The notes beneath the pieces were generated by a model. That model was not told the origin of the DNA and did no database searches. It saw nothing but the letters and a program-made list of their open reading frames with translations. The position numbers were made by a program, and so were the translations under genes. From NCBI GenBank assembly GCA_964016885.1, contig OZ024741.1:156240001-156304000 (forward strand): 64,000 nt of DNA. The letters run 5' to 3'. This DNA comes from Eledone cirrhosa. Lineage: Eukaryota. Positions 6,643 to 56,970 of this stretch are shown piece by piece. Position 1 is the stretch's first letter. Each line of letters begins with the position of its first letter.

Positions 6643-6687
6643 TTCTACAGGACTAGAGTTGTTTCATTCAAATGAAATCATCAGGAA
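6643..6687 (-). ncRNA. Type I hammerhead motif (family of 24298/24966)
   Basis: Reverse complement reads ttc-CTGATGA-tttcatttgaat-GAAA-caactctagtcctg-TA-gaa. Confidence 0.7.
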
Positions 6688-6697
6688 ATCCCTTAAA

Positions 6698-14255: not shown

Positions 14256-14264
14256 CATACACTT

Positions 14265-14800: not shown

Positions 14801-15649
14801 CACACACATACATATATATCTATATACATATCTCTATACACAGATATATATACACACACACAAACATATTCGCTCATACGCGCACATCCGCATGTATATA
14901 CACCCATGTAGACACATATGTACCCTTTAGAAGGGTGAAAATAGAAATAACAGGTACGTATTATTTACTTATCTCAGTTTGTATTGCCTTTTATGTGCGA
15001 AAGGTATTAGGTTGGAGGTAGTTTGTCATTAGGAAAACCGGATTATAGACCGTCTGAGGAGTTGCTATCCATATAGATTGAGGAAAGTTCCTGTCCTTAG
15101 GTGTCGACATACACCAAAGAAATCTGCCCTGCGGTTGCTTAAATTTATTCCGCAACTGAGTATCTCGAGGGTCTCACTCAGACAGAGGCTGCAAATGCCA
15201 GACCCGCCTCCGTCTGAGGGTACCTCCCTAAACTTTGACTAACCTAAAGAGTACGGGGTCTTGCCTAGCTTGAGCTTCCAGATCAGTTCAGACAAAGGCC
15301 GTACTTTTCCTTTTGTCGACACTATTAAAGGAGTGGCACAGATTATACCACCTGTCCTTGAAGCTCGTTGATGTTGCTCCTATGTATATATGCTCCGTGT
15401 TGCGGTTTGTAACCCTGCATCGGTAAACTAAGTTCTTCACCAGGCATTCATTTCTAAGGGGGCATAAGACGGGGTTTCTGCAGTTGCATCAAGAAGTCAT
15501 CCTCTGTACGTTTACTACCCCAATGGGTAGATTGGAGTGGTGCATCCCTATAACTTGCTCAGGATTTCTGGGCGGGTTTGTGTGACTCAAGTCAGTCCTG
15601 GGTCTACTGTTTACCCTGTGATGGCTCTGCTGGATGTCTCTAGGATCAA

Positions 15650-18684: not shown

Positions 18685-18897
18685 AATACAATATATAAAT
18701 ATTAGGTATAGGATTACCCAAGATGTAGTAATGGTTAATTACTACACTGGATATGGTTGACGTACGGTGAGAGGTTACTCTACGAGTTATGGAAGAATTG
18801 TTGAAGAAACTTAGTTCCTGATCCTTCTGTATTCCGGAGTGTATATAAAGAATGAATAATAACAGGTAGACATCATAAAAAGGTAATTTATTCCGTG

Positions 18898-19009
18898 TGC
18901 TTACAAATGTTTCCACGGTGGTACTACAGCCTAGTTATGCTACGTGCAAATTTACAAGTATTTGCAGAACTCAAATATCCAATGCTGTGACCATTGTATC
19001 CTCAGCGCA
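18898..19009 (-). ncRNA. Hammerhead with about 85-nt stem II domain
   Basis: Reverse complement reads tgcg-CTGAGGA-tacaatggt...accaccgtg-GAAA-cattt-GTA-agca. Confidence 0.55.
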
Positions 19010-19539
19010 GAATGGTAAAATGTACAATGTAAATACCCTTAAGTGGGGTTGTTGGGGAAGATAGAGTAGAAAAGGAAGAGAGAAAAGTAGGGGAGAGGGA
19101 GAGAGAGAGAATGATATGCAGGGGTTGGAGAAGTAGGAGAGAGTGGTTTGTAGATATCTTAATCAAAATGTTATGGTAGGGGTTTTATTATACTGGTTAC
19201 TTTTGGAGAGATGCGTTGATGGGTAAGGTCGGAATTATTTATTGCCCCAGAGGGCAGGTTCATAGATGTGGAGAAGGGAGGTAGGCCAAAGGCGAGAGAG
19301 AGAGAGTGTAATGGATGTAGAGAGAGAGGTAGAGAGGGGACAGACGAAGTTTATGTGGTGAGTGAACTTTGGGTTTGTAGTAGTAATCTGTGAATTGCAC
19401 TGAGTTACCCTTTATAGTGATAAGCAGTGTATTGTCTTGTAGTGTGGGGGAAGAGAAGGTGGTTAGCTAGAAAGCGATGTTATAGTTACGGGTTCGAATG
19501 TTAAGTTATTTTATAGTGGGAGAATTTAGCTTTTAGTTT

Positions 19540-20594
19540 GTGGTTGCAGTATAATGATCGTTCAATTCTATCGTTAAGTAGTTTGTTTTTGGATTTTAAT
19601 ATGTAAAAGAGTTCAAAGTTACATAACCTGCAGTACTTCAATCCACTCCGATATGCACTTGCGCTGGAAAGTATATCCCATTTTAGGTGAACTGTTGGTT
19701 GCGTTCACGGAGTTGCCAGGTCTTGTTGGCGAGCGTGGTCACAAAACGGTGATTAGGATGTTTGATTGAGAATCGATGACGGTACCAGCGAGATTTAAAC
19801 GAGGTGGTGGTAGATCCGATATAATACCATTTCTGGTCGTTCGATTCAACCGTGCATTGGTAAACAATGTTGGACTTCAGGCATTCATTCTTCAATGGAC
19901 ATCTTTCGGGTAGATGGCAGTTACATTCTTTGTTGTGGGTAGCGGGTATACCATGGATAGGTTGTGATAGCGGTACAGGTGGATTGTGTAATACCCATCT
20001 CCCATTTAGTGGTTGGGAGGCAGATATTACGTTCTGCCCATCTGTTACTAAAATGTTTTGTTTTGTAGAGTTGTTTAATTGCCTTAAGTTAAGTTTTTTT
20101 ATGTATGCTTCAAGGTTTGGTGCCGTGGAGTATGATAGTCTAATAGTTTTAGAGTTCAGAATTTTGCTGTATTTATGGGAACTAGGGAAATGTTTGTTGA
20201 TTAACTTAAAGAATGAAAGAGATAGTTTTGTACTAATCGAGGCATTAAATATAGGATTGTACCAGATATACTTTCTCCAACGTGATTTATTTTTTCTGTT
20301 ATTAGTATGTCTGGTAGTACTGTGTGTGCGCGCTTGTATTTTAATCCTCCGGTTACGTATTCCTTGATTTCGTGTAGAGCTATGTGAGTTATGGAAATTC
20401 CTATCAATGTATTCTATTGTATCCCGGTGGTCGGCCTTTCTTAATGCATTATTGTAGTATTCAGCGTGTTCACTAAAAATATCAGAGTTAGACGATAGGC
20501 GAGAGATTCTAAGAGAAATACTCCGGGGAACTGATTTGATCATGGAGAGTGGGTGGTTTGAGTTAAAGTTAATATACGTAAGGTTCCCATTCAT
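19540..20594 (-). pseudogene. PLE RT thumb + Cys linker + GIY-YIG endonuclease (truncated, stop at 19683)
   Basis: YINFNSNHP..ISRLSSN, WYNPIFN, CNC..CPL..CLKSNIVYQCTV..YIGSTTTSFKSRWYRH; continues past the stop as WDIL..CRLCNFE..LLNDRIE. Confidence 0.9.
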
Positions 20595-20650
20595 CTTGTA
20601 AGCACACGGAATAAATTACCTTTTATGATGTCTACCTGTTATTATTCATT

Positions 20651-20688
<38 letters not shown>

Positions 20689-21020: not shown

Positions 21021-21207
21021 TTATCCCGGTTTCAATTGGGGGTAACCACAGTAAGTAAGGTACTCAATACATAGCAGAGTATAAATAGTTATCATACAAA
21101 TGGCTTCTACAGGACTAGAACTGTTTCATTAGGGAGAAATCATCATCGGCGCTTTCCTCATAATTTCTCCCAAATGAAACAGTTCTAGTCATGTAGAAGT
21201 CATTTCT
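21021..21207. repeat. Short fold-back with tail, HHR family of 24213
   Basis: Tail GGTAACCACAGTAAGTAAGGTACTCAATACATAGCAGAGTATAAA is shared with 24236-24280; two inverted degenerate HHR halves. Confidence 0.85.
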
Positions 21208-24214: not shown

Positions 24215-24297
24215 GTTATTCCGGGTTGAATCGGAGGTAACCACAGTAAGTAAGGTACTCAATACATAGCAGAGTATAAAAGTTTTAATATAGATGA

Positions 24298-24346
24298 GAT
24301 TCTACAGGACTAGAACTGTTTCATTCGTTAGAAATCATCAGGAATC
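24298..24346 (-). ncRNA. Canonical type I hammerhead ribozyme
   Basis: Reverse complement reads gattc-CTGATGA-tttctaacgaat-GAAA-cag-ttctagtc-ctg-TA-gaatc. Confidence 0.85.
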
Positions 24347-24965
24347 TGGGTATCAAAAAATAAAAATGGTATTTATAGGTCTCTACAAGTGGTAGGAGAG
24401 GGTGGGGAGTGGGATGGGTGCAGGCCATTGGTTGATTGAAAAGGGAATTCATTAAAAGCTAATTCTACAAAGCTATAGTTTATTTTTATTTATTTATGTT
24501 TTTAGAGTAACAAGGGCAGACAGAGTTCTATAAACAGGTTCCGGATGGCATACCATTCCTTGTCATTAAGTTTCTCTTAAGCTAACAGATGTCTATAAAA
24601 TCAGTGGGGGTCAGTCATGGTCGATAGAATTAAAGAAAAGGGAGATTCTTTAAAAGCTAAAAGAATCTCCCCTTTCTTTAATTCTATCGACCATGACTGA
24701 CCCCCCACTGATTTTATAGACATCTGTTAGCTTAAGAGAAACTTAATGACAAGGAATGGTATGCCATCCGGAACCTGTTTATAGAACTCTGTCTGCCCTT
24801 GTTACTCTAAAAACATAAATAAATAAAAATAAACTATAGCTTTGTAGAATTAGCTTTTAATGAATTCCCTTTTCTATCAACCAATGACCTGCACCCATCC
24901 CACTCCCCACCCTCTCCTACCACTTGTAGAGACCTATAAATACCATTTTTATTTTTTGATACCCA

Positions 24966-25014
24966 GATTCCTGATGATTTCTAATGAATGAAACAGTTCT
25001 AGTCCTGTAGAATC
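24966..25014 (+). ncRNA. Canonical type I hammerhead ribozyme
   Basis: gattc-CTGATGA-tttctaatgaat-GAAA-cag-ttctagtc-ctg-TA-gaatc; GUA cleavage triplet. Confidence 0.85.
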
Positions 25015-25371
25015 TCATCTATATTAAAACTTATATATATATATATATATATTTAATACAATAACAGAGATAGTTTAAAGCTAAACTCTGACTGGTAACC
25101 ATCTCACTCAACAAACATTAGGTTATATTAAAATATAAACCCAATTTAAGTTTTTGGGGTGCTAACAATATGTATAATGTGGAAAAACCAGTTGTATTAT
25201 TTTATGAGATATAATTAAAGTTAAAGTATATCTCTCTTTCCAAACAATTGTTTCATTATAAGTTTTCTACAAGTTTGGGAGAATGTTTCCAGTTTATGTA
25301 GAAGCCTAATATATATCCATGTAAGAATATATTTAGATGGGCACTTATAAATCTTCAGTGGAAGCCCATTA

Positions 25372-27606: not shown

Positions 27607-28039
27607 ACACACTCACATATTCTCCCTCACTTACAGGCAAGAGAAAATACAAGATATTGTAAAACAAAGTTTGATTGCTCCCCCGGGAAGGTTTCCGAAA
27701 TAATACATTCTTGACAGCACACAGCAAGAGAAACACTTAATAAATACATCAACGGCACAATAACAACAACTAAAATAACAACAATCCCCAACACCAACAG
27801 AGACAGAGCTACGATATCGAACTACAACATACAGCGACAACTACAGTAACAACAACGATAAAGTCAAATCCATAATAAGAAGAAAATTATTAAACTAAAA
27901 CAACAACATACAACACACAACTAGAACTACAATAAGCACGACAACAAAAACGATCTCAACAATAACAAAAACATACATTATAGATAAAATAACAAGCACG
28001 ATCTCAACACGCACACATAACAAACAACACAAACACAAC

Positions 28040-31000
28040 GACAACACACATACAGCAACAGCACACAACTCCAATAACACCACAAACAGCAACAGCCAAC
28101 ACAACAACACACAACTCCAATAATACCACAAACGAACAACAGCCATCACAACAACAACACAACACCAATAACACCACAAACAAACAACACCCAACACAAC
28201 AACACACAACTCCAATAACAGCACAAACAAACAACAGCCAACACAACAACAACATAACCCCAATAACACCACAAACAAACAACAGCCGACACAACAACAC
28301 ACAACTCCAATAACACCACAAACAACAACAGCCAACACAACAACAGCCAACACAACAACAACACAACTCCAATGACACCACAAATAAACAACAGCCAACA
28401 CAACAACACACAACTCGAATAACACCGCAAACAAAAACAGCCAACACAACAACAACACAACTCCAATAACACCACAAACAAACAACAGCCGACACAAGAG
28501 CACACAACTCCAATAATATCACAAACAACAACAGCCAACACAACAACAACACAACCCCAATAACACCACAAACAAACAACAGCCAACACAAGAACACACA
28601 ACTCCGTTAATATCACAAACAAGAACAGCCAACACAACAACAAAACAACTCCAAGAACATCACAAACAACAACATTCAACACGACAACAACACACAACTC
28701 CAATAACACCACAAACAAACAACAGCCAACACAACAACACAACTCCAATAACACGACAAACAGCCAACAGCCAACACAAGAACACACAACTCCAATAATA
28801 TCACAAACAACAACACAACTCCAATAACATCACAAACAACAACAGCCAACACAACAACAACACAACTCCAATAACATCACAAACAACAACAGCCAACAAC
28901 AACACAACTCCAAGAACATCACAAACCACAACAGCCAACACAACAACAACACAACTCCAATAACACCACAAACAAACAACAGCCAACACAAGAACACACA
29001 ACTCCAATAACGTCGCAAACAACAACAGCCAACACAACAACAACACAACTCCAATAACACGACAAACAAACAACAGCCAAGACAAGAACAACACAACACC
29101 AATAAAACCACAAACAAACAACAGCCAACACAAGAACACACAACTCCAATAATATCACAAACAACAACAGCCAACACAACAACAACACAACTCCAATAAC
29201 ACCACAAATAAACAACAGTCAACACAAAAACACACAACTCGAATAACACCGTTAACAACAACAGCCAACACAACAAAAACACAACTCCAATAACACTACA
29301 AACAAACAACAGCCAACACAACAACAACACAACTCCAATAACACCACAAACAAACATCAGCCAACACAACAACAACACAACTCCAATAACATCACAAACA
29401 ACAACAGCCAACACAACAACACAACTCCAATAACACAAACAACAACAGCCAACACAACAACAACACAAGTCCAATAACATCACAAACAAACAACAGCCAA
29501 CACAACTACAACACAACTCCAATAACACCACAAACAAACAACAGCCAACACAAGAACACACAACTCCAATAATATCACAAACAACAACAGCCAACACAAC
29601 AACAACACAACTCCAATAACACCACAAACAAACATCAGCCAACACAACAACACACAACTCCAATAACATCACAAACAACAACAGCCAACACAACAACAGC
29701 ACAACTCCAATAACACAAACAACAACAGCCAACACAACAACAACACAAGTCCAATAACATCACAAACAAACAACAGCCAACACAACTACAATAACACTAC
29801 AAACAAACAACAGCCAACACAACAACAACACAACTCCAATAACACGACAAACAAACAACAGCCAACACAAGAACACAACACTCCAATAATATCACAAACA
29901 ACAACAGCCAAAATAACAACACAACTCCAATAACATCACAAACAACAACAACAGCACAACTCCAATAACATCACAAATAACAACAGCCAACACAACAACA
30001 ACAGAAATTCAAATAACATCACAAACAACAACAGCCAACAACAACACAACTCCAAGAACATCACAAACAACAACAGCCAACACAACAACAACACAACTCC
30101 AATAACATCACAAACAAACAACAGCCAACACAACAACATAACTCCAATAACATCACAAACCACAACAGCCAACACAACAACAACACAACTCCAATAACAT
30201 CACAAACAAACAACAGCCAACACAACAACAACACAACTCCAATAACACCACAAACAAACATCAGCCAACACAGCAACGCACAACTCCAATAATATCACAA
30301 ACAACAACAGCCAACACAACAACAACACAACTCCAATAACATCACAAACAACAACAGCCAACACAACAACAGCACAACTCCAATAACACAAACAACAACA
30401 GCCAACACAACAACAACACAAGTCCAATAACATCACAAACAACAACAGCCAACACAACTACAATAACACTTCAAACAAACAACAGCCAACACAACAACAA
30501 CACAACTCCAATAACACGACAAACAAACAACAGCCAACACAAGAACACACAACTCCAATAATATCACAAACAACAACAGCCAAAACAACAACACAACTCC
30601 AATAACATCACAAACAACAACAACACAACTCCAATAACATCACAAATAACAACAGCCAACACAACAACAACAGAAATTCAAATAACATCACAAACAACAA
30701 CAGCCAACAACAACACAACTCCAAGAACATCACAAACAACAACAGCCAACACAACAACAACACAACTCCAATAACATCACAAACAAACAACAGCCAACAC
30801 AACAACACAACTCCAATAACATCACAAACCACAACAGCCAACACAACAACATAACTCCAATAACATCACAAACAAACAACAGCCAACACAACAACATAAC
30901 TCCAATAACATCACAAACCACAACAGCCAACACAACAACAACACAACTCCAATAATATCACAAACAAACAACAGCCAACACAACAACACAACTCCAATAA

Positions 31001-31160
31001 CATCACAAACAACAACAGCCAACACAACAACAACACAACTCCAATAACATCACAAACAACAACAGCCAACACAACAACACAACTCCAATAACATCACAAA
31101 CCACAACAGCCAACACAACAACAACACAACTCCAATAACACAAACAAACAACAACAAAAA
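28040..31160. repeat. AC-rich satellite, about 42-48-bp unit
   Basis: ACAACTCCAATAACA(T/C)CACAAACAACAACAGCCAACACAACAACAAC repeated over about 3.1 kb. Confidence 0.95.
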
Positions 31161-38610: not shown

Positions 38611-40818
38611 CAACGTAAACTCCGTTCCACTTATTCTAGTAGGCTTTTATATTTATATGTGAGCTGATAGAGTACTGTCTAAGGATTTACAGAAACCCAT
38701 GAAGCTAGATTTAACACCTTTCTAGTGGGTCCGGGTATGATTTTACATTCATTTAAATTATTGACGTATTGTTTTATTGATATTTTTTATCTGTTTGGCC
38801 CGAATCTTCCTTTATCGATTTTAAATCGTATGGTTGATTGTAGACTTGTTCTATATGTGACGGTATTTTAACGATAGTTATAGCTCTGATTCATCTGAAT
38901 TATTGAGCCCTCTGCCGCTCATATCGAATTTCGTTTTTCGTGAACTCGTGCGCCGATTTTTCGATACTCGATCTTTCTAATATATTTAGCTCTGGACATA
39001 GCTATCCACCAGTTAATTTTATTGCTCATTTTTTGTCGATTCTATTGAGTGATGAATAGCTTTTGTTTTATTTTAACATGTCTATTGAGCACTCTAATTC
39101 GATATGTGTATTTCCACATTCACTCGAATTGTTTTCGCGGATATAGGGGTCATCTCCCTTGTCTAATGCCATGTGCGTTTTTCACCGCTAGTTGACTCCT
39201 TTGCCGCCAGGATAAAACTCGTTGACAACGTAAACTCCGTTCCACTTATTCTAGTAGGCTTTTATATTTATATGTGAGCTGATAGAGTACTGTCTAAGGA
39301 TTTACAGAAACCCATGAAGCTAGATTTAACACCTTTCTAGTGGGTCCGGGTATGATTTTACATTCATTTAAATTATTGACGTATTGTTTTATTGATATTT
39401 TTTATCTGTTTGGCCCGAATCTTCCTTTATCGATTTTAAATCGTATGGTTGATTGTAGACTTGTTCTATATGTGACGGTATTTTAACGATAGTTATAGCT
39501 CTGATTCATCTGAATTATTGAGCCCTCTGCCGCTCATATCGAATTTCGTTTTTCGTGAACTCGTGCGCCGATTTTTCGATACTCGATCTTTCTAATATAT
39601 TTAGCTCTGGACATAGCTATCCACCAGTTAATTTTATTGCTCATTTTTTGTCGATTCTATTGAGTGATGAATAGCTTTTGTTTTATTTTAACATGTCTAT
39701 TGAGCACTCTAATTCGATATGTGTATTTCCACATTCACTCGAATTGTTTTCGCGGATATAGGGGTCATCTCCCTTGTCTAATGCCATGTGCGTTTTTCAC
39801 CGCTAGTTGACTCCTTTGCCGCCAGGATAAAACTCGTTGACAACGTAAACTCCGTTCCACTTATTCTAGTAGGCTTTTATATTTATATGTGAGCTGATAG
39901 AGTACTGTCTAAGGATTTACAGAAACCCATGAAGCTAGATTTAACACCTTTCTAGTGGGTCCGGGTATGATTTTACATTCATTTAAATTATTGACGTATT
40001 GTTTTATTGATATTTTTTATCTGTTTGGCCCGAATCTTCCTTTATCGATTTTAAATCGTATGGTTGATTGTAGACTTGTTCTATATGTGACGGTATTTTA
40101 ACGATAGTTATAGCTCTGATTCATCTGAATTATTGAGCCCTCTGCCGCTCATATCGAATTTCGTTTTTCGTGAACTCGTGCGCCGATTTTTCGATACTCG
40201 ATCTTTCTAATATATTTAGCTCTGGACATAGCTATCCACCAGTTAATTTTATTGCTCATTTTTTGTCGATTCTATTGAGTGATGAATAGCTTTTGTTTTA
40301 TTTTAACATGTCTATTGAGCACTCTAATTCGATATGTGTATTTCCACATTCACTCGAATTGTTTTCGCGGATATAGGGGTCATCTCCCTTGTCTAATGCC
40401 ATGTGCGTTTTTCACCGCTAGTTGACTCCTTTGCCGCCAGGATAAAACTCGTTGACAACGTAAACTCCGTTCCACTTATTCTAGTAGGCTTTTATATTTA
40501 TATGTGAGCTGATAGAGTACTGTCTAAGGATTTACAGAAACCCATGAAGCTAGATTTAACACCTTTCTAGTGGGTCCGGGTATGATTTTACATTCATTTA
40601 AATTATTGACGTATTGTTTTATTGATATTTTTTATCTGTTTGGCCCGAATCTTCCTTTATCGATTTTAAATCGTATGGTTGATTGTAGACTTGTTCTATA
40701 TGTGACGGTATTTTAACGATAGTTATAGCTCTGATTCATCTGAATTATTGAGCCCTCTGCCGCTCATATCGAATTTCGTTTTTCGTGAACTCGTGCGCCG
40801 ATTTTTCGATACTCGATC

Positions 40819-40826
<8 letters not shown>
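38611..40826. repeat. 615-bp tandem repeat, about 3.6 apparently identical copies
   Basis: CAACGTAAACTCCG at 38611, 39226, 39841 and 40456; (TA)n at both ends. Confidence 0.97.
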
Positions 40827-40857
<31 letters not shown>

Positions 40858-40858
<1 letters not shown>

Positions 40859-43800
40859 TAGCATTAAAGACCGGTGTTGCTCGGGGTCAGTAAGTTACCA
40901 AAGTTAAGTTGCACCACCCATTTTATGGCAGCATTTTTTTGTCTGCCAGGCACTGGTTGAATGAATTGCAAACCTGCACTGGCGAACAGGAGCTGCGCCA
41001 GCAGTGACAATTGTAGTTTCGCCTATTGATATTATCTCTGTGCAAAGAAGTGCTCAAATTTATTGTTTCACAGTACTTGCGCAACACGCGCGTAGACGAT
41101 GCCAGCCGAACAACAGAGCTGCGATGGAGTTGTTCTGCATGACATGTTTTAACGGGAGAGGGGCGGATTGAGGGAACCGCAAACTGGGGCCTGAAAACAT
41201 TGTCGAATTATGACAACCAAAAAAGAGGAAGAGGGATCATTGTATGGTTGGTGCATCATGTACGTCGGACGTAGAAGATGAGCCTGCGGCTGTGCCGACG
41301 GAGGGAGGGAAATAGAGCTGGGTGGAGGCCAGGTGTTGGTGAAGTGTGAAGTAATTGCAGGGAACCGCGTAAAAATCTAAATCCCGTCATTAAAGCATTG
41401 TTGACCCTTTGAGAGTCGTACGGAGGTGAAATACTAACCTGTCCACCGTCCTCCGAGGCCCACCAAACGGGGGTTGGTGAGGAGCAACAGCTGATATTTG
41501 AGTAGGGTCGGAGTTGCAATGAAGTTTTGTAACGCCGCGAGAATCAGCCTTTGTACGGCAGATGGTGGGTAGTGTCCAGTGCACTGCAGTGAAGGTTAAC
41601 CTACTTAGAAAGTACTCACGAAAAGGCAAAAAATAAAAAAATAAAAAATGTTATAAAATTAGGAATCAAGGTAATCCTATAAAACCTCCTTGTACATAAA
41701 GTTTTTTTTGTTTTTCCTTGCGGAACGAACGCGAAATCATCACTCTTGCTGCCGACACGCGAGCAGCCATTAAAGCTGACCATGAGAGAAACACGGCTCC
41801 CCCAAATGTATTCCCGCGACAGACAGTGTTTGTCCCTGCGCTTTGTTAATTGACATTGCGAAGCATGGCTTGACCGGGAACTGGGACCTCCGAAATGTGA
41901 GAGGTAGGTCTGTTCCTGATGGGAAAAGATGCATCCTCGGTATGAGCACAAACTTGCCCCGACCACACCCTGTGATTATCGTGGCCTCAATCAGATTGGG
42001 AGCTAAGGACTTAACGACCAAACGTGTGCCATTGCATTGTTTCGGCGGAACCAAATTTCGAATGAGCATTATAGGGGCACCAACTTTAAGTTTCAAAATG
42101 TGTGGGGGTAATCCGAGGGGCTCAAAGGAATTTAGTACCTCTATTGGATAGTTGATGACGCCCTCGGGGTCAGGAGTTCTATCGATAGACTTATATACGT
42201 AGCCATCCCCAGGAATGAGTTTTAGCATTTGATCATTAATATGGTTAACAGTTTTATTCCTCGGGGCCAGAATAGCCCTTTGGCCAAGCCAATCCATATT
42301 CTGATAATTTGCTTGGAGATCTGGGAACACTGCATCCCTGAGATCAGAAGGCGTACTAACAACGGTACAAAGTGATTCGATGGCAATATTACCCTTTTCA
42401 TCCCCGGGCGTTTTGCCTTCGCCAAGTGCAAGGATGGTGTGAGAAAATGCTGCTGATGTGATATCACCTCGCATATGAGCACGCATGTTAGTGTGAAGTT
42501 TCAGAGTCTTCACCAGGGGCCACAATGCAGATGACTTAAGACACGCACGTACTGCATCAGCTATAGTCCCCTTGGGAATAACGGGAAGCGTTTGCCTGAA
42601 TTCCTCTGAAAGAAGAAGTGTTATGCCTCCCATTGGAGCCGTAGAGTCTTTGATATCTCTCAGAGTTCTATCGAACGCCTCAAGAGCACCTCTGTGGGCC
42701 ATCGTGCATTCGTCCTTCTGTTCGCCTAATCTTAGCTAATATTAATTTGGTGACAAAAGTCTTCCCAGTCCCCCCAGGAGCGTCCAGGAAAAAATCCCCC
42801 CAGCTTTTCCCCGGACAGAATTAACAACGGAGTTGTAAGCGAATTTCTGTTCTGAAAGGAGCTTTGGCTCATTCTCTGCTATGTACTGGGAAAGCTCGTC
42901 AACATTATAAAATGTCTCACGCAGCAAATCCGAAGACAGAGTGTTTGCACATTCCCGGTTTGTTGAAGGTAGGCCATACACAGCTAACGCACTACCGCCC
43001 ATATCGAGAACAGTATCTTCGATTTCAAGCAGCGCCCTGTTGTAAATGAGGTAAAATGGGTTTAGCAACTGAGCGTGACGCAGGAAATCTTCAGACATGT
43101 AATCTTTGTAGCTAAACCATAAAGAGGCCGGATCACCCAAGTCACACCATAGGAGTAGAATAGCGAAAAGCGATCTAGTCTTTTAGGAGATTTCAATAAA
43201 ACGCCCTCTGCCATAGTGGCGCCCCATTGTGAATCATCCTCCAAAAGGTCACGTCTAAAGCAGGCTTCCCGGAAAGTATCACATAATTCACCGTCAACAG
43301 TTCTTATGTCTCGAAAGCTTTGTGGACCAAAAACCTCATGGAGAAGAAGGCGCAGGTGAAAACACTCATGCTGGTTGGGAGGTGTAGTGTACACTCTTCC
43401 TAGACAACTGTCAAACTTGACACCAGGATGTCCTTCAACATCCTGACCTGACTTCCTACGCACCCAAGTGTTGTTGGACCACACGTAGTAGGACGGGACC
43501 TGAGGATATGAAAGTGTTTTTGCAAATGTGTCAAGTTGGCAAAGCGTAAAACAAACAGTCAAATTTGTTTCTTTTGGATTGGCCGCCAAATGAGCAGCAG
43601 TCTGTTCAGTAAAGTAAGCCCGCTGGCCGTTTTCCAAATGAACCGCTAGTTGTATGATGGCGGGGTGCCTTTGGTGAACTGGAAACCCAAATATCCGCCA
43701 AAAAGCTTCACCCCTGCTGATATATCGATCTGCCAAGTACTCCGAGACCTCGTCCCTGCTATTGTCGTTTTGAAGGCCGAACATGGCAGCGTCGGAACCC

Positions 43801-46800
43801 TTGTTAACATATTTACATATGTACTTTATCGACTTCACTGAATGACAGAACTCCACATTTATATGAGCGTTGAAGGTTTTCATCAGAAATGGACAGTACG
43901 GGACCACCCACCTATTATCAATTTGATGACCCCGTAACGTCATAGTGAATCCACCGTTCTCAGGCCGCCTTCGTCTGTACAGTGGGTATCCGTCGCCGCC
44001 GGTCTGGGTCTCCTCAACAAACCTCTTTGGGTATCGTTTAGTGCACACATGGTCCTTGTGGCATGAGGAGAACTCTTGAAAACCGGGTCCGCACGGACCG
44101 TGCACCATGTGTGCCTTCACAATGTCGTACAGCTGCCGGTCAACAACGGGGTCCGGGATTTCCGCTGCGATGACGTCATCTATAACTGTAGGGTCTATTT
44201 TGGTGACCAACCAAACCAAAATGTGCGCGTGTGGCAACCCTCTCTTCTGCCACTCAACAGTATACATGTGGCACCTTAGAGGCCCGAAAACCTTCCCTTT
44301 TTTTATTAGATCAATTAGGTTAGCCAGCTTCTGCCTGAAACCCCTGGCAATAATATCATGCTGATGGCAGTACCTCTGCCCTGGGATAAGTTCCCGCGTA
44401 ACCTCAACCCACTTGGGCTTACACGTAAACGTGATGAATAACTCGGGGCGCCCATAATGCCGAACGAACGTCATAGCGTCCTGTGTTCGCTCGTGCATGT
44501 ACCGCGCCCCCTCCCCGTATAGGTTGAGGGGAGAATGCACATTTTGCCGATGTTCGCGGGGTCAGTGTCATTCCTGATGCCGTCACGCAAATGGATGTAG
44601 GAGTCTGAGCGCAGCTGCTTCTGATTCAATTTTATGAAGCACAGTCTCTCCGACTCCATCTTTGCAGCCATGTCAATTGCAAACTGGTGAAACAGTTCTC
44701 GTGACCTGTGCAGGGTGCTGAAATCGTTAGGCCTCGTCATGAAGCGGTATGAGTATAAAGCCATGCATGAAACAGCTTTAGATGTTGCAGCAGTGGGCTC
44801 GTTTGGTTTGCGCTGAGGAATGCCGAAATGGTACCCGTCTATTCCGTATGCAAAGAGAACGGGATACTGCAGGGCGTCGTATGAACGATGCGTCTCATTA
44901 ATACGTCGAAGACCACTGTCACGACTTTGAAGAACTATGTCTTGCTTATTGTGCTGTTCATCATGGATAACTACGGCCACTTCATTGCACGAAGGAGCGT
45001 TATAACAGCGTGCGTGCTCCCCAGAAAGTCTTTTGTCAGCATCGATGACAATGGTGAAGTTTGGTGAAGGATGTGTTTCGAATGCGTATTTGAAACTGCG
45101 AATATAACTGTTGTGCTCATGAAGCATGTTTTGAAGATCGAGCAGCACGTCCCTTTCAAAAGTGTCAGCGTCAGTGTTTGCATGTGTTGGAATAACGCCG
45201 AACCACGCATCAACTTGCCTACTGTAGTTAGAAATGAAGTAAATTTGAAGGAACGAAGGCTTGCAAGATGGTACACCTGCCCCTGGACCTTGAAAGTAGG
45301 CATCCAACCACTTTCTCTGACAACGTTAGCCCCGAAAGAAGTTATTTGAAACGCACAATTGTACTTCCTGATGAGTTGAAGGAATTTGGATGACCTTGAG
45401 GTAGAACCAGTAAGTAGTTCCTTCAAAGGCTCTGGTGGTTCCCCAAGAGGGGGCAAGCTAACCTTACCGTTTAAGCAGCACATTGCAGGTGGTTCCGAAC
45501 CCACTTTTTAGCATTGCAGAATTTGCAATTGAAGCGCATTTCCCGTATATTTATGTCGGCACGCATCGAGTAGTTAACGTTGGGCTCATACTTGAAAGCC
45601 CGTAGGTGCCAGTATGGGCTGTCGGAGCTCGTCACACCGTGGGCAGCTTCTTGTCGTCGACTGGTCCGCTCCAACGTAGAATGTTGCTCCTGTGGGTCGT
45701 GGGAAGCTCTCGCAGCAGTAGCAGAAGTCACCCTTGCAATCCTAGTGGAGCGCCCGTCTGCATCTTCAGAAGCCATGGAATCAGTCATAGCCGCAGCGTT
45801 CCTAGCAAGGCGATTCATCCGCCGTTCCAAACCTTCCAAAGCCCTGGAAGCAGCAGTAGCCGCACTGTTTCTATTCAGGCGAGTCGACCTTTGTTCCGGG
45901 CTCTCTGAAGCCCTGGAAGTAGCAGTAGAAGCGTTTTTGGGGGAATGACGTATCCCCCGCTCCGAATCGCACATCGCAGCACGTCTCGAGGCGTCGTATG
46001 AAGCCATCTTGACTAGGCGTGCGGTGCGGTGTTGAAAACTTTCAGCAGCTCTGCATTCCGCTGAACGGAAGGCGCTCTGTGAAAGTCTTAAAGCAGTTTC
46101 CTCGGGGGGTTCGTTTGCTGTAATCGCCCTCTGCGCCGCCGCTGACGCAGTATGGCGACCGAGGCGACTTCTCTTTTTATGTGGCATTGTATGTGAAAAA
46201 GAAAGGGTGAAAGTTACTTCTACAGCAAAATTGCCTTTGAAAGTGTAAGGGTGAAAACTGTCTGCGTTCCGCAGGTGAAAAAATGGGAGAACGAACGGTT
46301 AATAAATAACTCACAGTTTGTTGAAAGCGCGCTTCTGTCAGCAATTTGAAGTTGTTTGGCCAAAAATCTCTATTTGTTTGTTTTTTTCACTCAATAAACG
46401 TGTAAATATGTTATAAACAAAATGTAATTGTGTGTGAGCATGTATTTTTTTTTTTTTGAATAGAGAGAGGAAATTATTTCCGTAATTGTGAGTGATTTTG
46501 AAATAAATAAATAGTCGTTGATCTAAGTTAGACCATTTACAACATTCTTACAGAGGCAAATAAATAACTCACAGTTTGTTTAAAGCGCGCTTCTGTCAGC
46601 AATGTGAAGTTGTTTGGCCAAAAATCCCTATGTGGTTTTTTTTTCACTCAATAAACGTGTAAATATGTTATACACAAAATGTAATTGTGTGAAATTATTA
46701 AGGAGTGGGTTTATAAACGTATATAAGAGATGTAAGCGTCATGTATTTAACGTTTGTCTCTGTCTCTGACTCTCTGGCTACCTCCTTTATTTTCTCTCTC

Positions 46801-49232: not shown

Positions 49233-50690
49233 GTGTGTGTGTGTGATTGTGTGAGTGAGTGTGTGTGTGCGTGCCAGCGAGTGTGTGTTTCTATGAGTGT
49301 GTGCCTGTGTGTTTGTGTGCATGTGCACGTGTGTGCATCCATTCTAGAATGTTTGCACCATTCCCAACCATGAAATTTGTTAACAACTTCAAACTAGCAT
49401 ATATATTAGAGAAAGTGAGAATCTTTGAGAGTTAAAATCAATATTTGCACCTTCCCTTTATATTTCTTCCAGTAAAACCTGTCGGTGATTGACCTGTTAG
49501 TTCGCGTATCGATAACTATATCTGATTAGTCAATAATAGATTGCAAGTCGCAAAAATACAAGAAACTCGTTAGTAATGATATTTCCAATTTTATCGATTT
49601 CACCTAACATGTAATTCAATATAATAACATCACGTTATGTCCTAATTTATCAAACTATCTGCAATATGGAAATCAATCAAAGCAGCTAACTCTGTCAAAC
49701 CTAGAACTTCTGAAATGATAATCAAAGAAGTTTTACTTTGTGAATCCATCACCTGAAGACACGTAGTCAAGTGGTTAAGGTGTTAGATTCACACTCATCA
49801 TGTTGTAGGTTCAATTCCTGAACCATGCGATGTGTTCTCTTATGGTGCAAGAAGCTTCATTTCACGTTGCTTTTCGTGATTGGAGTTGGATTCCTATCCT
49901 TCAATCACCCTATAAATATTTAACGATATACTTTCTCGTAGGTGTCCAGCTAAACCTACCAACGTCTGAGCAGTAACGACAACATTATAGGACTACGACC
50001 CATCATTAAAACACACCAGAAACTTCCGATGCAATGTTGGCTCGTAGGACGCTAGTTAAACTTGCATAGGTGTGAGCTGTAAATTTCTTCTCCCCTCATC
50101 TACATTATGCGTGGTTAAGAGGTTTGCTTCACAGCGAGGTTCATAAAAGAAGTAGAAGTATTACGTTCAGTGTATGTGAGAAACGCTCGCTTGGTAATCT
50201 CGCCTGCAGGCACAGCTGAGGTTAAGAAATTCCCTTTGTAATCACTTAAGAAACTGATTGAGTACCTGTTACTATAAATTCTTGTTTACCCAGGCGATGT
50301 GAGCGAAATTCGGTATAAGAAAAGTGTTTGGAATACGTCGGATGAACTGTACACCATGCCATGCTAAGTGTCTCGAGAGAATTTCGTCAATTGTAAGCAT
50401 TTTTTTAGCAATATTCAGTCACTTGTACGTTAATTTCATAAACAGATTATTCTATTGCTTCGAATAAATGGAACATTTCATTTTATGTTGCTTTTGACTA
50501 CTTGTCTAATATCGCTGGCTGCCAATAGCAGCCATGTATGATGAATGCAGTCACGTTGAAGTCTCGTAATCTGTTACTTAATGCTACTGAAACCGTCATA
50601 AGCTCTGATCCACTGACCCTCTGGGCTTGGAAGATGCTTTAACTTAACTTGAAATAATATAGTACCCCGACAACCCCACACGACTCACTG

Positions 50691-50744
<54 letters not shown>

Positions 50745-50959
50745 ATACTACTATTACTACTACTACCAGTACCAATACCAGTATATATCGTCACATAACT
50801 AGTAATAACATAGCACCATCACCACCACCACTTCCACCTCCACCACCATCTCTAATGCTATTGCCTATACTGCTACTACTGCTATGAACGCTACTACTAG
50901 TATGTATCTTCACATAACTAGTAACAATATAGTACCATCCCCACTACCACCACCACCAT

Positions 50960-51006
<47 letters not shown>

Positions 51007-51201
51007 GTAGTAGTAGTAGTATATATCATACATCTATATATCTAAAACAGAGAATGTCTGTCTGTCTGACTCCCTAAAACTCGAGAACCACCCAACCGAT
51101 TGTTTTCTAACTTTACACATGTAATACTTGTGGCCCTGTGAGTGTTTTGAGCAAAGATTTCAAGTTTTCAATGCCCTAGGGACCGCATAAGGCGATTTAG
51201 C

Positions 51202-51243
<42 letters not shown>

Positions 51244-51489
51244 TCTGTCTCTTTTTAGATAGATACATAGATATAACGTTGCGCCCTTATAATATCTGTC
51301 TGCATGTCTGGCTGTCTGCATTACCACATTATGACGCGGTGTGTGTGTGTATATTTGTATATATATATATATATATAGTGTGTAACGTTTTTCGAAATAT
51401 TTACTTCTGCGTTCACAGATTGATTTTTTTAGTTTCAGAAGATCCCATTAAGGGTGTAAGCAGCGATTCTTTGCTTAAACTTTAATCTG

Positions 51490-51540
<51 letters not shown>

Positions 51541-51547
<7 letters not shown>

Positions 51548-52409
51548 GAAAGGTATAGAAAACACTGCAGCGAAAAGCCAAGACCATTCCATAATATATA
51601 AGTGACTATAGCGTCTAAATGGGAAAAATAGTTAACGTAAGATGTGGGAAAAATAATTCAAACTCATCTCAAAGAGAATCAGGATATAAATTCATCCACA
51701 GAATTTAGTGAAATCCAGGGAAAAATCATAGAGCCTTAACTCATGATAAAATAAAGTTTAAAATACTTATCCTTCAATTTGGAAAAACTTTAAATGCTCT
51801 GTATAGTCTTAAAGACTATTTCATGAAAACTTTCAGTGGAGATGGTCACGGTTGGAATTCAATCCTCAGCAGAGCTCAACTCGATAACCAGGATTCTCAC
51901 AGATTTATATGCCAAAAGGGAATTTTAAAACAGGTTAGTTTACCATCATGCGTGATTATGAAAAACGCACATGAGGAAAGACATGGCTAGTGACGTCAGA
52001 ATGAGATGAATGATTGTTTACAAGAAACAACAGTCAAAAACATTCCGAAAATTACTCTACAAAAGGAGTTCAGCAAAAAGCAATATTATCGCAGTTTTTT
52101 ATTAAAAAAACCGGGATTAGTCACAAATAATTTAAGCACTCTAGGAAAAAAATCCGAGTATAAATATATAAATGAAAGGTATAGAAAACACTGCAGCGAA
52201 AAGCCAACAGCATTCCATAACATATAAGTGACTATAGCGTCAAAATGGGAAAAATAATTAACGTAAGATGTGGGAAAAATAATTCAAACTCATCTCAAAG
52301 AGAATCAGGATATAAATTCATCCACAGAATTTAGTGAAATCCAGGGAAAAATCAATAGAGCCTTAGCTCATGATAAAATAAAGTTTAAAATACTCATCCT
52401 TCAATTTGG

Positions 52410-52412
<3 letters not shown>
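51541..52412 (-). mobile_element. 626-bp HHR monomer, about 1.4 tandem copies
   Basis: AATGAAAGGTATAGAAAACACTGCAGCG at 51545 and 52171; (TA)n flanks. Confidence 0.85.
51796..51875 (-). ncRNA. Type I hammerhead with full stems
   Basis: Reverse complement reads gctctg-CTGAGGA-ttga...tcat-GAAA-tagtct-tta-agacta-TA-cagagc. Confidence 0.8.
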
Positions 52413-52486
<74 letters not shown>

Positions 52487-52660
52487 GGTACAGATCATTT
52501 TGCATACACAATAACAAAATATAAACAAAAGTATTTATTTCGCGATAAAGTATTGATTTGCTTCGCACGGAAAAAACCCTGGTAATCTACGACGAATTTT
52601 TTTATAAGCACAAATTGTAGACACCACCCCGAGGCCGTGGTATTCCGTACTTCTCTGTAG

Positions 52661-52750
<90 letters not shown>

Positions 52751-52754
<4 letters not shown>

Positions 52755-53696
52755 AGATAAGCAGAACAAGTAAAATTCAACCAATTTTTCAAAATAAATC
52801 AAAATTAATATACAATTAAAATTAATCAAAATTAAAAAATATAATATAAATATTTACCTATTCAAATGGCCCTAACTGTACAGTTTCACGGTGCAAAACA
52901 TTAAATATCACGAGGATATTAATGGAAAAGCAACGATCATCAGAGAAGCATTTTCCTGTCCTAGGGTTAAAAACCCCAGGAACCACAAAATATATGACCT
53001 CACTCCAACTAATACAGGTCTAAAAGGTCGTGAAAGTGACCCGTAAATACATTGGTGTATAGTGAAGGCGGGAAATCGTAGACTCGCCGTCTATAATCGC
53101 CACTAAAAAAAAAATTTTTAGTAACTAAATAGAACGACAAATTTTTATCTCTACATACTGGAGATTATTGAATAAGGTTAATATATATCTGAGGGTACAA
53201 TGTACCCCCGGAAATATATAGTGTGTCTATGATTTAAGGTGGTTCTATGGTAATAATTTGATATACCAGAACTTAATATCAAGATAAGCAGAACAAGTAA
53301 AATTCAACCAATTTTTCAAAATAAATCAAAATTAATATACAATTAAAATTAATCAAAATTAAAAAATATAATATAAATATTTACCTATTCAAATGGCCCT
53401 AACTGTACAGTTTCACGGTGCAAAACATTAAATATCACGAGGATATTAATGGAAAAGCAACGATCATCAGAGAAGCATTTTCCTGTCCTAGGGTTAAAAA
53501 CCCCAGGAACGACAAAATATATGACCTCACTCCAACTAATACAGGTTTAAAAGGTCGTGAAAGTGACCCGTAAATACATTGGTGTATAGTGAAGGCGGGA
53601 AATCGTAGACTCGCCGTCTATAATCGCCACTAAAAAAAAAAATTTTTAGTAACTAAATAGAACGACAAATTTTTATCTCTACATACTGGAGATTAT

Positions 53697-53699
<3 letters not shown>
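52751..53699 (-). mobile_element. 527-bp HHR monomer, about 1.8 tandem copies (HHRs 52869-52949, 53396-53476)
   Basis: ATCAAGATAAGCAGAACAAG at 52751 and 53278; CTGATGA..GAAACTGTACAGTTA on -. Confidence 0.88.
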
Positions 53700-53732
<33 letters not shown>

Positions 53733-53793
53733 ATAATAATAAAATTGATGACTACGCCGGGCCATTCTGCTTAAACTTTAATCTGTTATTTTA

Positions 53794-53836
<43 letters not shown>

Positions 53837-54669
53837 TATATTCGTGTACATATATTTTTGCATACACAATAACAAAATATATACAAACGTATTTATTTCA
53901 CGAGGCTCGATAAGGATAAATATATATCAAATATATAAGAACCCTAGAGCAAATCCCGAGCAACGCCGGGCCATTCTGCTAGTCATCACTACATTGTAAG
54001 GCAATAACTCTTGAGAGAAAATCTAAGCGGCTGATCTCAGAACTGATCAGTCACATTACTCATAGTAACTTTCCTATCAACTCAATTGAAAGTGTCGTCA
54101 CAGATTATACCATTTTGTACTTTCTGTCCTTAAATATATATACGCCCCGATGACTGTGTTAAAATCTGATCACCTCCTTAAAGGTTTTTAACATCATTAG
54201 TACAGTACCAACATAACTTACTGACAAATTGGAGCTGATGTTTTATCGTTTTGTTTTTATCTTTAATTTTTTTTTTTGCTATTATAGTTTATGAAGACCA
54301 AGAAAGAAAACAAAATATAAGAAAATAGGAAAGAAAAAGATTAGAAAAAAAAGGGAAAGAAAACTTTTAACTACTTCCTTTTTCAGTAAGCACTTATCTT
54401 GTAAAAGATTTTCGAAAGCCATTTACGATTTCCGCTGTAGGTATTCCAGACCCACTAAATAAGTATATATGAAGTAAATTGACTATTATTCTTGAAATTC
54501 AGTGCATAAGGACTTTATTTTTAGTAATAATTATATATACGAGCTTTATAGACAGACAGTTTAAAAAATAAACTGCTTAACGGGTTTTTCGCATATTCTG
54601 ATAACTTTCTATATAAATATGGTATTCTATGACGCTACATACATACATACATATACACGCGCACACACA

Positions 54670-54761
<92 letters not shown>

Positions 54762-54762
<1 letters not shown>

Positions 54763-55350
54763 GTGTAAGGTTAATATATCTGAGGGTACAATGTGCCCCC
54801 AGAAATACATGGTTGTCTATGATTCAAGGTGGTTCTATGGTAATAATTTGATATACCAGAACTTAATATGAAGATAAGCAGAACAAGTAAAATTCAACCA
54901 ATTTTTCAAAATAAATCAAATTAATTTACAATTAAAATTAATCAAAATTAAAAAATATAATATAAATATTTACCTATTCGGGTTGCTCTTACTGTACAGT
55001 TTCACTTTGCAAAACATTAGATATCACATGGATATTAATGGAAAAGCAAAGATCATCAGAGAAGCATTTTCCTTTCCTAGGGGTAAAAACCCCAGGAACG
55101 ATAAAATATATGACCTGACTCCAACTAATACAGGTCTGAAAGGTCGTGAAAGTGACCCATAAATACGTTGGTGTATAGTGAAGGCGGGAAATCGTAGACT
55201 TGTTGTCTATGTTTGCCACCCAAAAAATAAATTTTTAGCAGCTAGATAGAACGACAGAGTTTTTTCTCTACATAATCGGAGAATAAAGTGTAAGGTTAAT
55301 ATATCTGAGGGTACAATGTACCCCCAGAAATACATGGTTGTCTATGATTC

Positions 55351-55354
<4 letters not shown>
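54762..55354 (-). mobile_element. 525-bp monomer of the same family, about 1.1 copies, different start register
   Basis: AGTGTAAGGTTAATATATCTGAGGG at 54762 and 55287. Confidence 0.88.
54984..55066 (-). ncRNA. Type I hammerhead, extended stem II
   Basis: Reverse complement reads tgcttct-CTGATGA-t-ctttgc..hairpin..gcaaag-t-GAAA-ctgtaca-GTA-agagca. Confidence 0.82.
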
Positions 55355-55391
<37 letters not shown>

Positions 55392-55515
55392 TTATCCAGA
55401 TGTGGGTTCGACTCCCATGTACGTCAATACTCATCTTTTTCCATTTCTCAGAGGGTTGTTAACCCCACTATCAAGCTAAATAATTTCTTTAGTCAAAATA
55501 CGGCGATAGCTTATA

Positions 55516-55574
<59 letters not shown>

Positions 55575-55677
55575 CACGCGCACACGCATACACACACACA
55601 TTATATATATATATACATGATGGCTGCTCCCTCGTTATCGATTATGGCCATTGCACGAGGAAAAAAAACATAATAAT

Positions 55678-55865
55678 AATTGTTTCTACGTTTGGCACAA
55701 GGCCAGCAATTACCCAGTGCATTACTGATACTTTATTTTATCGACCCCGTAAGGATGAAAGGCAAAGTTAACCTCGGCGAGATTTGAATTCAAATGGCAA
55801 GGGCCGTAACTCTATGCGTCAAAGCATGGTGTCCGACCCTCTACCGATACGGCCAATCCACAACA
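55678..55865 (-). mobile_element. tRNA/Deu-domain SINE
   Basis: Reverse complement of the 31694 family. Confidence 0.85.
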
Positions 55866-55989
55866 ATAATAATATACGTATATATATATACACACACGCG
55901 CACACACAATAGCATATACACACACACACACACACACACAATTAACAGCACTGCGATCGAATGTGGCTTTTTGGCCCAGCCAATAATCT

Positions 55990-56970
55990 AAAATGTCTTG
56001 CACAGAGTTGGCAACCAAAATATTAACTGGGAATAGCCGGCTGTGGTTGGAGTTCATGTACTTTTGCATGTTGTTTGAGCCCTCCTGCTGATTTACATTC
56101 TATACCACATGCTTGGCAAGCATGATGAGTAGCATCTCCAACAGCAGCCTGGTAGTCAACCACTGGTCTTACTTTATGACTGCGAAGATGACTTTCGAGT
56201 CCAGCTTTGCTTGGCAGAGTCTCGCACAGACGCTGCATGTCAGCACCATAGGAGGACCTTCGCCCTCTGGAAATGCAACAGCAATGCCCTTCCTCACATG
56301 CCGCTTTACTTTCTCGTATGCGATTCGAGATGCCTCAAAGGCAACTTTCCCCTCATATACAGTCTTTCTCCATTTATTACGATCAGCAGCAACATTTTCC
56401 CATGTATCAGCAGAGATGTTAGAGTCTTTCAAAGAGGTTTTCAATGAATCCTTATGCCTTTTTTTTTGGTTTATGTGGCGGTCGTTTTCCTTTAAATAAC
56501 TCTCCATAAAATAGTTGTTTTGGTATTCTAGAATCCTTCATCCTGGCAAGGTGACCACTGCAATGGAGTCGTTGTTTAAGCACAAGAGCTTCTATACTGT
56601 CACACAGAGCTTTCCAAAATCTCGACATCACTGATGTGGTCCCTCCAGTGAACGCCATGGATCCGTCTGAGACACATCTGATGGTAACGCTCCAATTGCT
56701 TAAGGTGGTGTCGATATGTGACTCACGTTTCGCAGGCATAAAGAAGAGAGCACACATGCCTTGTACACCTTTACCTTTGTCTTCTTGCTTATGTCTCGCC
56801 GAACCCAGAGTCGCCTTCTAGCTTTCCGAAAGCATCACTTGCTTTCCTAATCCTCAGTGAGATTACATTATCAAGGTTGCTGTATCGATTGACAGTGCTT
56901 CCCAGGTAGACAAACTGATCAACCACTCCAAGTCGTTTACCATACACATAGATATTTGGTTCACTGTACT
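55990..56970 (-). pseudogene. RTE LINE 3' ORF fragment with C2H2 fingers
   Basis: VVDQFVYLGSTV, GHLARMKDSRIPKQLFYGEL, WENVAADRNKWR, CSVC..LESHLRSH, CQAC..GLKQHAKVH. Confidence 0.88.

Follow-up and report, generated by a model that had tools for sequence, protein, structure and literature searches.

What kind of element is the 867-bp sequence that lies between two microsatellites in the genome of Eledone cirrhosa, and how did it come to be there? The window analyzed (64,000 nucleotides of contig OZ024741.1, assembly GCA_964016885.1, within which all positions are counted) is AT-rich animal DNA with dense microsatellites and with debris of a Helitron and of Penelope-like elements (PLEs). The insertion is bounded by a (TA)27 tract (51491-51544) and an (AT)36 tract (52412-52483), features with no strand, and its first 241 bp are repeated 626 bp further on. 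This corresponds to 1.39 units of period 626, in agreement with the first-pass annotation, which had described 1.4 tandem units between (TA)n. The full monomer (51545-52170, minus strand) has a GC content of 33%, is U-rich on the strand that carries a ribozyme, and holds no PLE coding remnant. The partial second unit (241 bp, 52171 to about 52411, minus strand) is 96.7% identical to 51545-51785, from which it is set apart by 7 substitutions and 1 insertion. Seen from the strand of the ribozyme, this partial unit is the 5' part of the insertion and adjoins the (AT)36 tract, while the 3' end adjoins the (TA)27 tract, the likely target site. The 626-bp unit occurs a single time in the window. Our preferred reading, to which we assign a probability of roughly 0.7, is that it is a non-LTR retrozyme without an open reading frame (ORF), copied in trans by a PLE of the Hydra clade into (TA)n from circular or multimeric RNA.

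When both strands were scanned with descriptors, a type I hammerhead emerged at 51875-51796 of the minus strand, exactly where a hammerhead with a 6-bp stem I had been annotated, at that time with its strand unstated. It comprises stem I (6 bp, 51875-51870 with 51801-51796), the core CUGAGGA (51869-51863), a 40-nt stem-loop II (51862-51823) with a U·U base, 4 bp and a 30-nt loop, GAAA (51822-51819), and stem III (51818-51804), a near-palindrome of 6 bp with a 3-nt loop, to which the pair A15.1-U16.1 is added, all on the minus strand. The predicted cut falls between 51802 and 51801 of the same strand, at the triplet AUA. The combination CUGAGGA/GAAA/AUA fits CUGANGA/GAAA/NUH in type I order. 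In stem II, the U·U mismatch at 10.1/11.1 is followed by four pairs, three of which are A-U.

No Rfam hammerhead family reached its gathering score in the window, and none was among the 44 matches at E<=10 in 50000-56500; since Rfam also misses the other hammerhead-like motifs of the window, this reflects the coverage of its models. The lack of an Rfam match would also be expected if a single local duplication had happened to contain a hammerhead-like match, and relaxed descriptors do find weak chance hits elsewhere in the window, for instance within the Helitron. We consider this explanation very improbable: a stem I of at least 6 bp together with a stem III of at least 6 bp did not appear in any of 3000 dinucleotide-shuffled versions of the unit (27 of 3000 for the weakest class, with 4 and 2 bp), 1957 related contigs were found in one sequencing run, and the base of stem II is the commonest one among Hydra-type hammerheads, as described below.

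The ends of the insertion are informative about its template. Its 5' end lies 16 nt before the next equivalent cleavage site, and its 3' end, which coincides with an AU tract within the monomer, 257 nt beyond the cut site. Since copying continued past the cut site, the template would have been a circle or an incompletely cut multimer, and not a cut linear monomer. A 7-nt internal ATATATA (52164-52170, no strand) is in the register where the 3' end of the insertion meets (TA)n, and is possibly a priming microhomology. Among the differences between the two repeats, those at 51582, 51584 and 51616 are private to one copy, and those at 51727 and 51768 are common family variation; the differences are thus consistent both with one circle followed by later mutation and with template switching. 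The palindrome TGACGTCA at 51991-51998, about 115 nt upstream of the ribozyme, is presumably CRE-like and a possible part of an internal promoter. The 1.39-mer includes one complete ribozyme only, instead of the two consecutive ribozymes by which Li et al. recognize active copies; two are not required of offspring copies, and the single ribozyme indicates that this locus is an offspring copy, which cannot itself release a monomer.

The unit appears to encode no protein of a PLE. A tblastn search with 150 queries, all relatives of a PLE fragment of the window, gave no credible PLE protein in it (best E 0.006, over 17 residues), and its PLE profile score was -2, compared to 266 and 83 for the PLE fragments of the window. 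Its only ORF of at least 90 codons (92 codons, on the opposite strand) had no Pfam match, and the reverse transcriptase (RT), CxCx5C linker and C-terminal GIY-YIG ORF that identify an autonomous Hydra-clade PLE are absent from it. Such an element does exist in the same window: a 5'-truncated PLE at 19423-20645 (minus strand), with (TA)n at its start, contains an RT thumb, the CxCx5C linker and a GIY-YIG end, and is a candidate for the helper type. Three homologues of this fragment carry YRDD or a close variant, together with DKT and RW motifs. Pfam gave a weak RVT_1 match in one of eight related PLE proteins; since it hardly recognizes these proteins, the Hydra-clade call rests on the motifs. 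A word-index protein search of the fragment against longer proteins returned 0 of 1251 candidates, and the search for loci of close relatives 0 of 85. The larger PLE sequence enclosing it (18842-20659, minus strand) has a frameshift near the end of the ORF, and its 5' end recurs as an inverted copy of 65 bp; about 500 nt downstream lies a degenerate hammerhead with the core CUGAGGA, whose stem II is very long.

A second Hydra-type PLE 3' end (14264-14767, plus strand, of which 14264-14621 precedes the hammerhead) carries a hammerhead in its 3' UTR, at about 14724-14767, whose stem II begins with U·U as in the 626-bp unit; its stem III is minimal, and its core has a C3>A change. We also observed a third protein fragment of a Hydra-type PLE (15059-15692, minus strand). 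Hydra-clade PLEs are present in molluscs, carry canonical hammerheads, and nearly all their families insert into (TA)n (PMC8557442).

To place the hammerhead of the unit, we surveyed 90 Hydra-type PLE loci (77 from metagenome and 13 from genome contigs), of which 75 had a 3' flank of at least 150 nt and were kept for the analysis of flanks, with 15 dropped. A sense hammerhead was present in 51 of the 75 flanks and an antisense one in 3, compared to 1 in 750 shuffled flanks. Among the 45 distinct motifs, 20 had a U·U stem II base. The commonest base was UUG/CAU (12/45), the allele of the copy studied here, and UCG/CGU (6/45) is the other allele of the 626 family, found also in two of three 527-bp copies described below; altogether, the alleles of the family account for the stem II base of 18 of the 45 motifs. 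The best reading of the motif, judged by its stem II base, is therefore that of a Hydra-clade PLE hammerhead with a different stem III. The first-pass annotation had called this stem long and non-minimal, and the survey bears this out: stem III was of 2-3 bp in 51 of 51 Hydra-type hammerheads, never of 6 bp, and the triplet was GUA in 33 of 45 and AUA in 1, so that the long stem III of the unit is unusual.

The unit resembles Hydra-clade PLEs (PMC8557442) in its (TA)n target, in its sense type I hammerhead upstream of the 3' end, in its U·U mismatch followed by UG/CA or CG/CG, in its partial tandems, and in a 3' end that lies downstream of the cut site instead of at it. It differs from them in lacking an RT/endonuclease ORF, in the length of stem III, in the triplet, and in the distance from the cut site to (TA)n: 257 nt here, whereas the distance was 32-117 nt in 13 of 14 Hydra-type cases ((TA)5+ was present in 19 of the 75 flanks). 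We found no DNA similarity between the unit and the 90 distant Hydra-type loci, nor between the unit and the two PLE 3' UTRs of the window; the assignment of a Hydra-clade partner thus rests on ribozyme style, target and co-occurrence.

The same survey raises an alternative, namely that the insertion is pseudo-LTR (pLTR) debris of an autonomous PLE, consisting of 5'-truncated 3'-UTR copies of 241 and 626 bp, head to tail, with a fixed 3' end. Partial tandems are the normal insertion pattern of PLEs (PMC8557442), and 43 of the 90 Hydra-type loci had direct repeats, mostly pLTR-like, with hammerheads 79-524 nt behind the ORF. The 6-bp stem III, however, fits poorly with such debris, and further evidence comes from the other copies of the unit. 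Parts of it were found in six of the nine listed sequencing runs, from four studies and with four organism labels; the nine included no RNA run. Four of the nine runs (X1, X4, X5 and X7) were aligned to the unit at 80% likeness; X7 consists of raw reduced-representation DNA reads, from a separate study with the organism label of X1, and X1 may represent the same sample as the window. Run X1 contributed 1957 contigs (421, 543, 722 and 271 with identities of at least 99%, 95-99%, 90-95% and below 90%, respectively), X4 62 contigs, X5 2 contigs that were of no further use, and X7 3953 raw DNA reads, most of which were 90-95% or less than 90% alike. All 30 bins of the unit were covered in X1, X4 and X7. 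The summed X1 depth on the unit was up to 139,000, compared to 7-337 for single listed contigs, a depth which is not a copy number. From these data we infer that copies of the family number in the hundreds to thousands.

The tandem junction (52170>51545) was found in 36 X7 reads with 9 different starts and in X1 contigs. The same junction was also present in a divergent X4 contig of 487 nt, in which a segment of 40 nt at the junction differs clearly; the parts of this contig (54, 215, 73, 40 and 103 nt) account for its length as an unbroken unit of the same length. The presence of the junction in all three sources indicates that the period of 626 is a trait of the family. A "411-bp short variant" suggested by the joint in X4 was rejected, as the length of the contig is explained by an unaligned middle and not by a deletion. 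The unit is thus not a single-copy local duplication, the outcome that the first-pass annotation had considered fatal to its proposal, but a member of a multi-copy family with its tandem junction conserved in a divergent subfamily.

If the insertion were pLTR debris, the truncation junction should be private to its locus, and yet it recurs in the divergent subfamily, under another organism label, and in reads with nine starts. The X1 depth does peak from the ribozyme to the 3' end, as debris with a fixed 3' end would predict; against it, the X7 depth at 51986-52090 ranges from about half of that of the 3' half to equal to it, and only 1% of the X1 pieces continue into unlike sequence. We regard derivation from debris as unlikely, and retain the reading of a retrozyme moved in trans.

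TA-rich sequence also borders other copies of the family. One X1 contig ends at 51799, at a distance of 2 nt from the cut site, and both X1 and X4 have copies that end at 51888; these are among the 20 of 340 loose ends listed, and no alternative 3' end was seen among the same 20. The X7 read pile-ups that end at 51658, 51702, 51776/79, 51859 and 51924 were rejected as ribozyme ends, since they fall at AATT sites and represent cuts made for the library. DNA patterns taken from the unit had no matches in metagenome contigs, in genome contigs or in a second viral scan, and one match in a viral contig was a 20-nt chance match.

Variants within the ribozyme were common in X7. N7 was changed from G to U in 334 of 560 reads, 10.2 from U to C in 282 of 539, and 11.2 from A to G in 436 of 928; the last two changes combined convert U-A to C-G, and would keep the pair if they are on one molecule. 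An added A-U pair extending stem II was present in 235 of 494 reads, and insertions in loop 3 in 319 and 101 of 1127. These ribozyme variants were 4 among the 40 of 155 substitution rows listed and 2 among the 12 of 37 indel rows listed, and none of the rows listed affected the invariant core or stems I and III. By pairing rules alone, the common alleles would strengthen stem II and weaken a rival hairpin.

This pattern bears on a further possibility, that a PLE-derived minisatellite spread at the DNA level, by unequal crossover or carried with microsatellites, and that the ribozyme is a relic. Such a route has been proposed for the amplification of local retrozyme arrays (bioRxiv 2026.07.22.740005), and it would agree with the absence of an Rfam score and with the predicted unfolded state of stem II in this copy. 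A relic would not be expected to keep variants out of the core and stems I and III, as the listed ones are, and the various ends in TA-rich tracts (the 51785-equivalent, 51799 and 51888) are those expected of dispersed insertions; moreover, the target is common to three unrelated families. We therefore consider DNA-level spread improbable.

Whether this copy could cleave as a monomer, as the first-pass annotation expected of it, is a separate question. In the isolated 80-mer, stems I and III formed with pair probabilities of 0.81-1.0. Stem II had a pair probability of about 0.002 and formed in 12 of 5000 sampled folds, and the core was fully unpaired in 32 of 5000 sampled structures; the hammerhead-constrained fold (-15.9 kcal/mol) is 3.6 kcal/mol above the minimum free energy (-19.5 kcal/mol). 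According to the predicted folds, the core is partly trapped by a rival hairpin. The hammerhead had been described as well-paired, which holds for stems I and III, of 6 bp each, and does not hold for stem II with its U·U base. When the flanks are included, upstream sequence competes for stem I, whose probability in the circular monomer is 0.42. Compared to 30 shuffles, the circular monomer folds only modestly better (z of -2.6), with 58% of it paired. Stem III, palindromic at 14/15 positions, has an intermolecular duplex at -15.2 compared to -3.7 for the hairpin.

The long stem III and the near-certain formation of stems I and III in isolation speak for monomer cleavage, while the weak stem II, the rival hairpin and the preference of the palindromic stem III for intermolecular pairing speak against it. 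We judge efficient monomer cleavage of this copy to be possible, with the chances somewhat below even. Published cases point both ways: HHR_Amex2 of the axolotl, with a U·U stem II base, reached 22% cleavage in 1 h as a monomer, and its dimer worked far more efficiently (PMC7229834); a fungal PLE ribozyme whose helix III is large cleaved as a monomer at 0.16/min in 1 mM Mg; metazoan motifs with a lengthened helix III cleaved mostly at non-physiological Mg (both PMC4209133); and eight of nine predicted Xenopus retrozymes gave no cleavage in vitro (bioRxiv 2026.07.22.740005).

The (TA)n tracts of the window contain three mutually distinct hammerhead monomers, of 626, 615 and 527 bp. The 615-bp family (38611-40833, plus strand) consists of 3.6 units at 99.9% identity, flanked by (TA)n, and three of its type I hammerheads are complete. 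These have a UUGACAA core (at 39222), a C·A stem II base, a 5-bp stem III and the triplet GUC; a core of the UUGACAA type corresponds to the U3-A8 covariant (PMC4209133). The sequence CUGAUAGA was discarded as the core of this unit in favor of the better UUGACAA motif. The 615-bp copy has consecutive ribozymes in the sense of Li et al. and looks very recent, and it is the best candidate for a source copy in the window. An exact 15-mer is common to the 626-bp and 615-bp units (51959-51973, minus strand; also at 39170, 39785 and 40400, in the same sense), with 4 matches where 0.14 are expected by chance, and is possibly a common cis element. Homology of the two units beyond the 15-mer was rejected, with a global score of -37 compared to a shuffle maximum of -25.

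The 527-bp family is represented by two insertions within (TA)n (52751-53699 and 54763-55354, minus strand), with two consecutive complete ribozymes. They are 90.6% alike and circularly permuted, with 3' ends located 123 nt and 227 nt beyond the cut site. Their hammerhead has a U·U base and a palindromic 8-nt stem-loop III, and the circle folds with a z of -5.9. As the first-pass annotation had stated, the 626-bp unit is unrelated to this family (no similarity at E<0.05) and has the same architecture, which extends also to the 615-bp family. Permuted relatives, which it had also sought, are another matter: the 626-bp unit has many relatives, but permuted 3' ends were found only for the two 527-bp copies. 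The 3' end of the insertion is at an internal ATATAT in two of four cases, the 626-bp and 615-bp insertions, and not clearly so in the two 527-bp ones.

Hammerheads with a U·U base also occur in a fourth family (24275-25037, 6642-6688 and about 21100-21150), twice in a 336-bp inverted repeat of 99% identity plus solo copies; it looks like inverted PLE ends. A solo hammerhead at 12874-12954 (minus strand), with a C·A base, a 6-bp stem II and a palindromic stem-loop III, adjoins (AT)n.

Under the reading of a retrozyme moved in trans, tandem 626-bp copies elsewhere in the genome would be transcribed on the U-rich strand, and the hammerhead would cut at AUA, alone or as a dimer through its near-palindromic stem III, freeing monomers (as in PMC7229834). 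A host ligase would close these into circles; ligation to circles by RtcB is described for axolotl and mussel RNAs (PMC7229834). The RT/GIY-YIG protein of a Hydra-clade PLE would then nick (TA)n, and reverse transcription would be primed at the internal AU-rich stretch, with more than one round of the template copied. A bolder version, which we put forward tentatively and hold to be doubtful as a whole, is that the unrelated ORF-less circular-RNA elements of 626, 615 and 527 bp all parasitize Hydra-clade PLEs, and that the first two lengthened stem III independently for monomer cleavage. AU tracts within the circle would serve for priming at nicked (TA)n, and a stem III beyond the 2-3 bp of the helpers would represent a switch from dimer-dependent to monomer cleavage. 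If true, this would name the helper clade of an invertebrate retrozyme and reveal the adaptation of a ribozyme to a parasitic cycle.

The features of the unit are those of animal non-LTR retrozymes (PMC7229834; bioRxiv 10.64898/2026.07.22.740005): a tandem, non-coding unit with one type I hammerhead, low GC content (below 50%), many copies, PLEs in the same genome, and a U·U base as in HHR_Amex2. Measured on DNA, its length is within the range of 51-972 bp reported for retrozymes (bioRxiv 10.64898/2026.07.22.740005), and exceeds the 170-400 nt of invertebrate circles (PMC7229834). It differs from animal retrozymes in its stem III of 6 bp instead of 1-2, in its 40-nt stem-loop II, and in that this copy is a dispersed partial tandem in (TA)n with one ribozyme. 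Like the hammerheads of PLE pLTRs (Cervera & de la Pena 2014, PMC4209133), it has a palindromic stem III able to support a dimer, and for those elements, as for the 626-bp unit, a circular template and insertions of more than one unit have been proposed. The metazoan minimal motifs of that study are unlike it, in that they have a G10.1-C11.1 pair and a stem III that is small or absent; its own large stem III is reminiscent of the monomer-cleaving PLE motifs of fungi and protists. It also resembles Chlamys PLEs such as MRC1 (PMC8557442), which are ORF-less, form pLTRs or head-to-tail copies, and are biased to microsatellites. Chlamys PLEs are, however, algal and mostly without canonical hammerheads, and they have 3' sequence in common with autonomous partners (PMC8557442), whereas no such partner was found for the 626-bp unit among the loci compared.

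A PLE origin of retrozymes, with lengths up to 972 bp, has already been argued (bioRxiv 10.64898/2026.07.22.740005); since the class is published, our finding extends it and overturns nothing. A repeat annotation of octopus described 31 recently active Penelope-like families (PMC13282606), with no occurrence of the word "ribozyme" in its main text, and a search of titles and abstracts, in which subscription journals are little covered, returned no such cephalopod elements and no tie between retrozymes and the Hydra clade. Arguments on what moves animal retrozymes still draw on co-occurrence and pLTR trees. In the present case, one 64-kb window brings together three unrelated hammerhead monomers and fragments of Hydra-clade PLEs, with (TA)n as their common target; the 626-bp and 527-bp monomers and a PLE 3' UTR of the window also agree in having U·U at the base of stem II, and a concrete candidate pair of helper and parasite can be offered. 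The lengths of stem III, 2-3 bp in the helpers and 5-6 bp in two of the parasites, form a natural series in which to ask when monomer cleavage arises. Repeats of this class were missed here both by Rfam and by a tandem search with a period of 500 bp.

Some further observations concern the surveyed loci and the rest of the window. At two loci (L008 and L054), whole Hydra-type elements are repeated head to tail in exact units, of 2405 bp and 2427 bp respectively, with about 300 bp of non-coding sequence per unit; they could be either real tandems or the assembly of circular units. Hydra-type animal PLEs were also present in 13 bacterial-genome contigs from GTDB (L079-L091), including a 491-kb contig labelled Denitrobaculum (L087), most likely reflecting contamination with host DNA. 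Within the window, the Helitron (41770-46298, minus strand) is broken, with Pfam matches to PIF1 helicase and Helitron_like_N. A 65-bp minisatellite is repeated 13.6 times at 1434-2320, and a (CAA)-rich array based on a 47-bp unit extends over 3 kb at 28020-31153.
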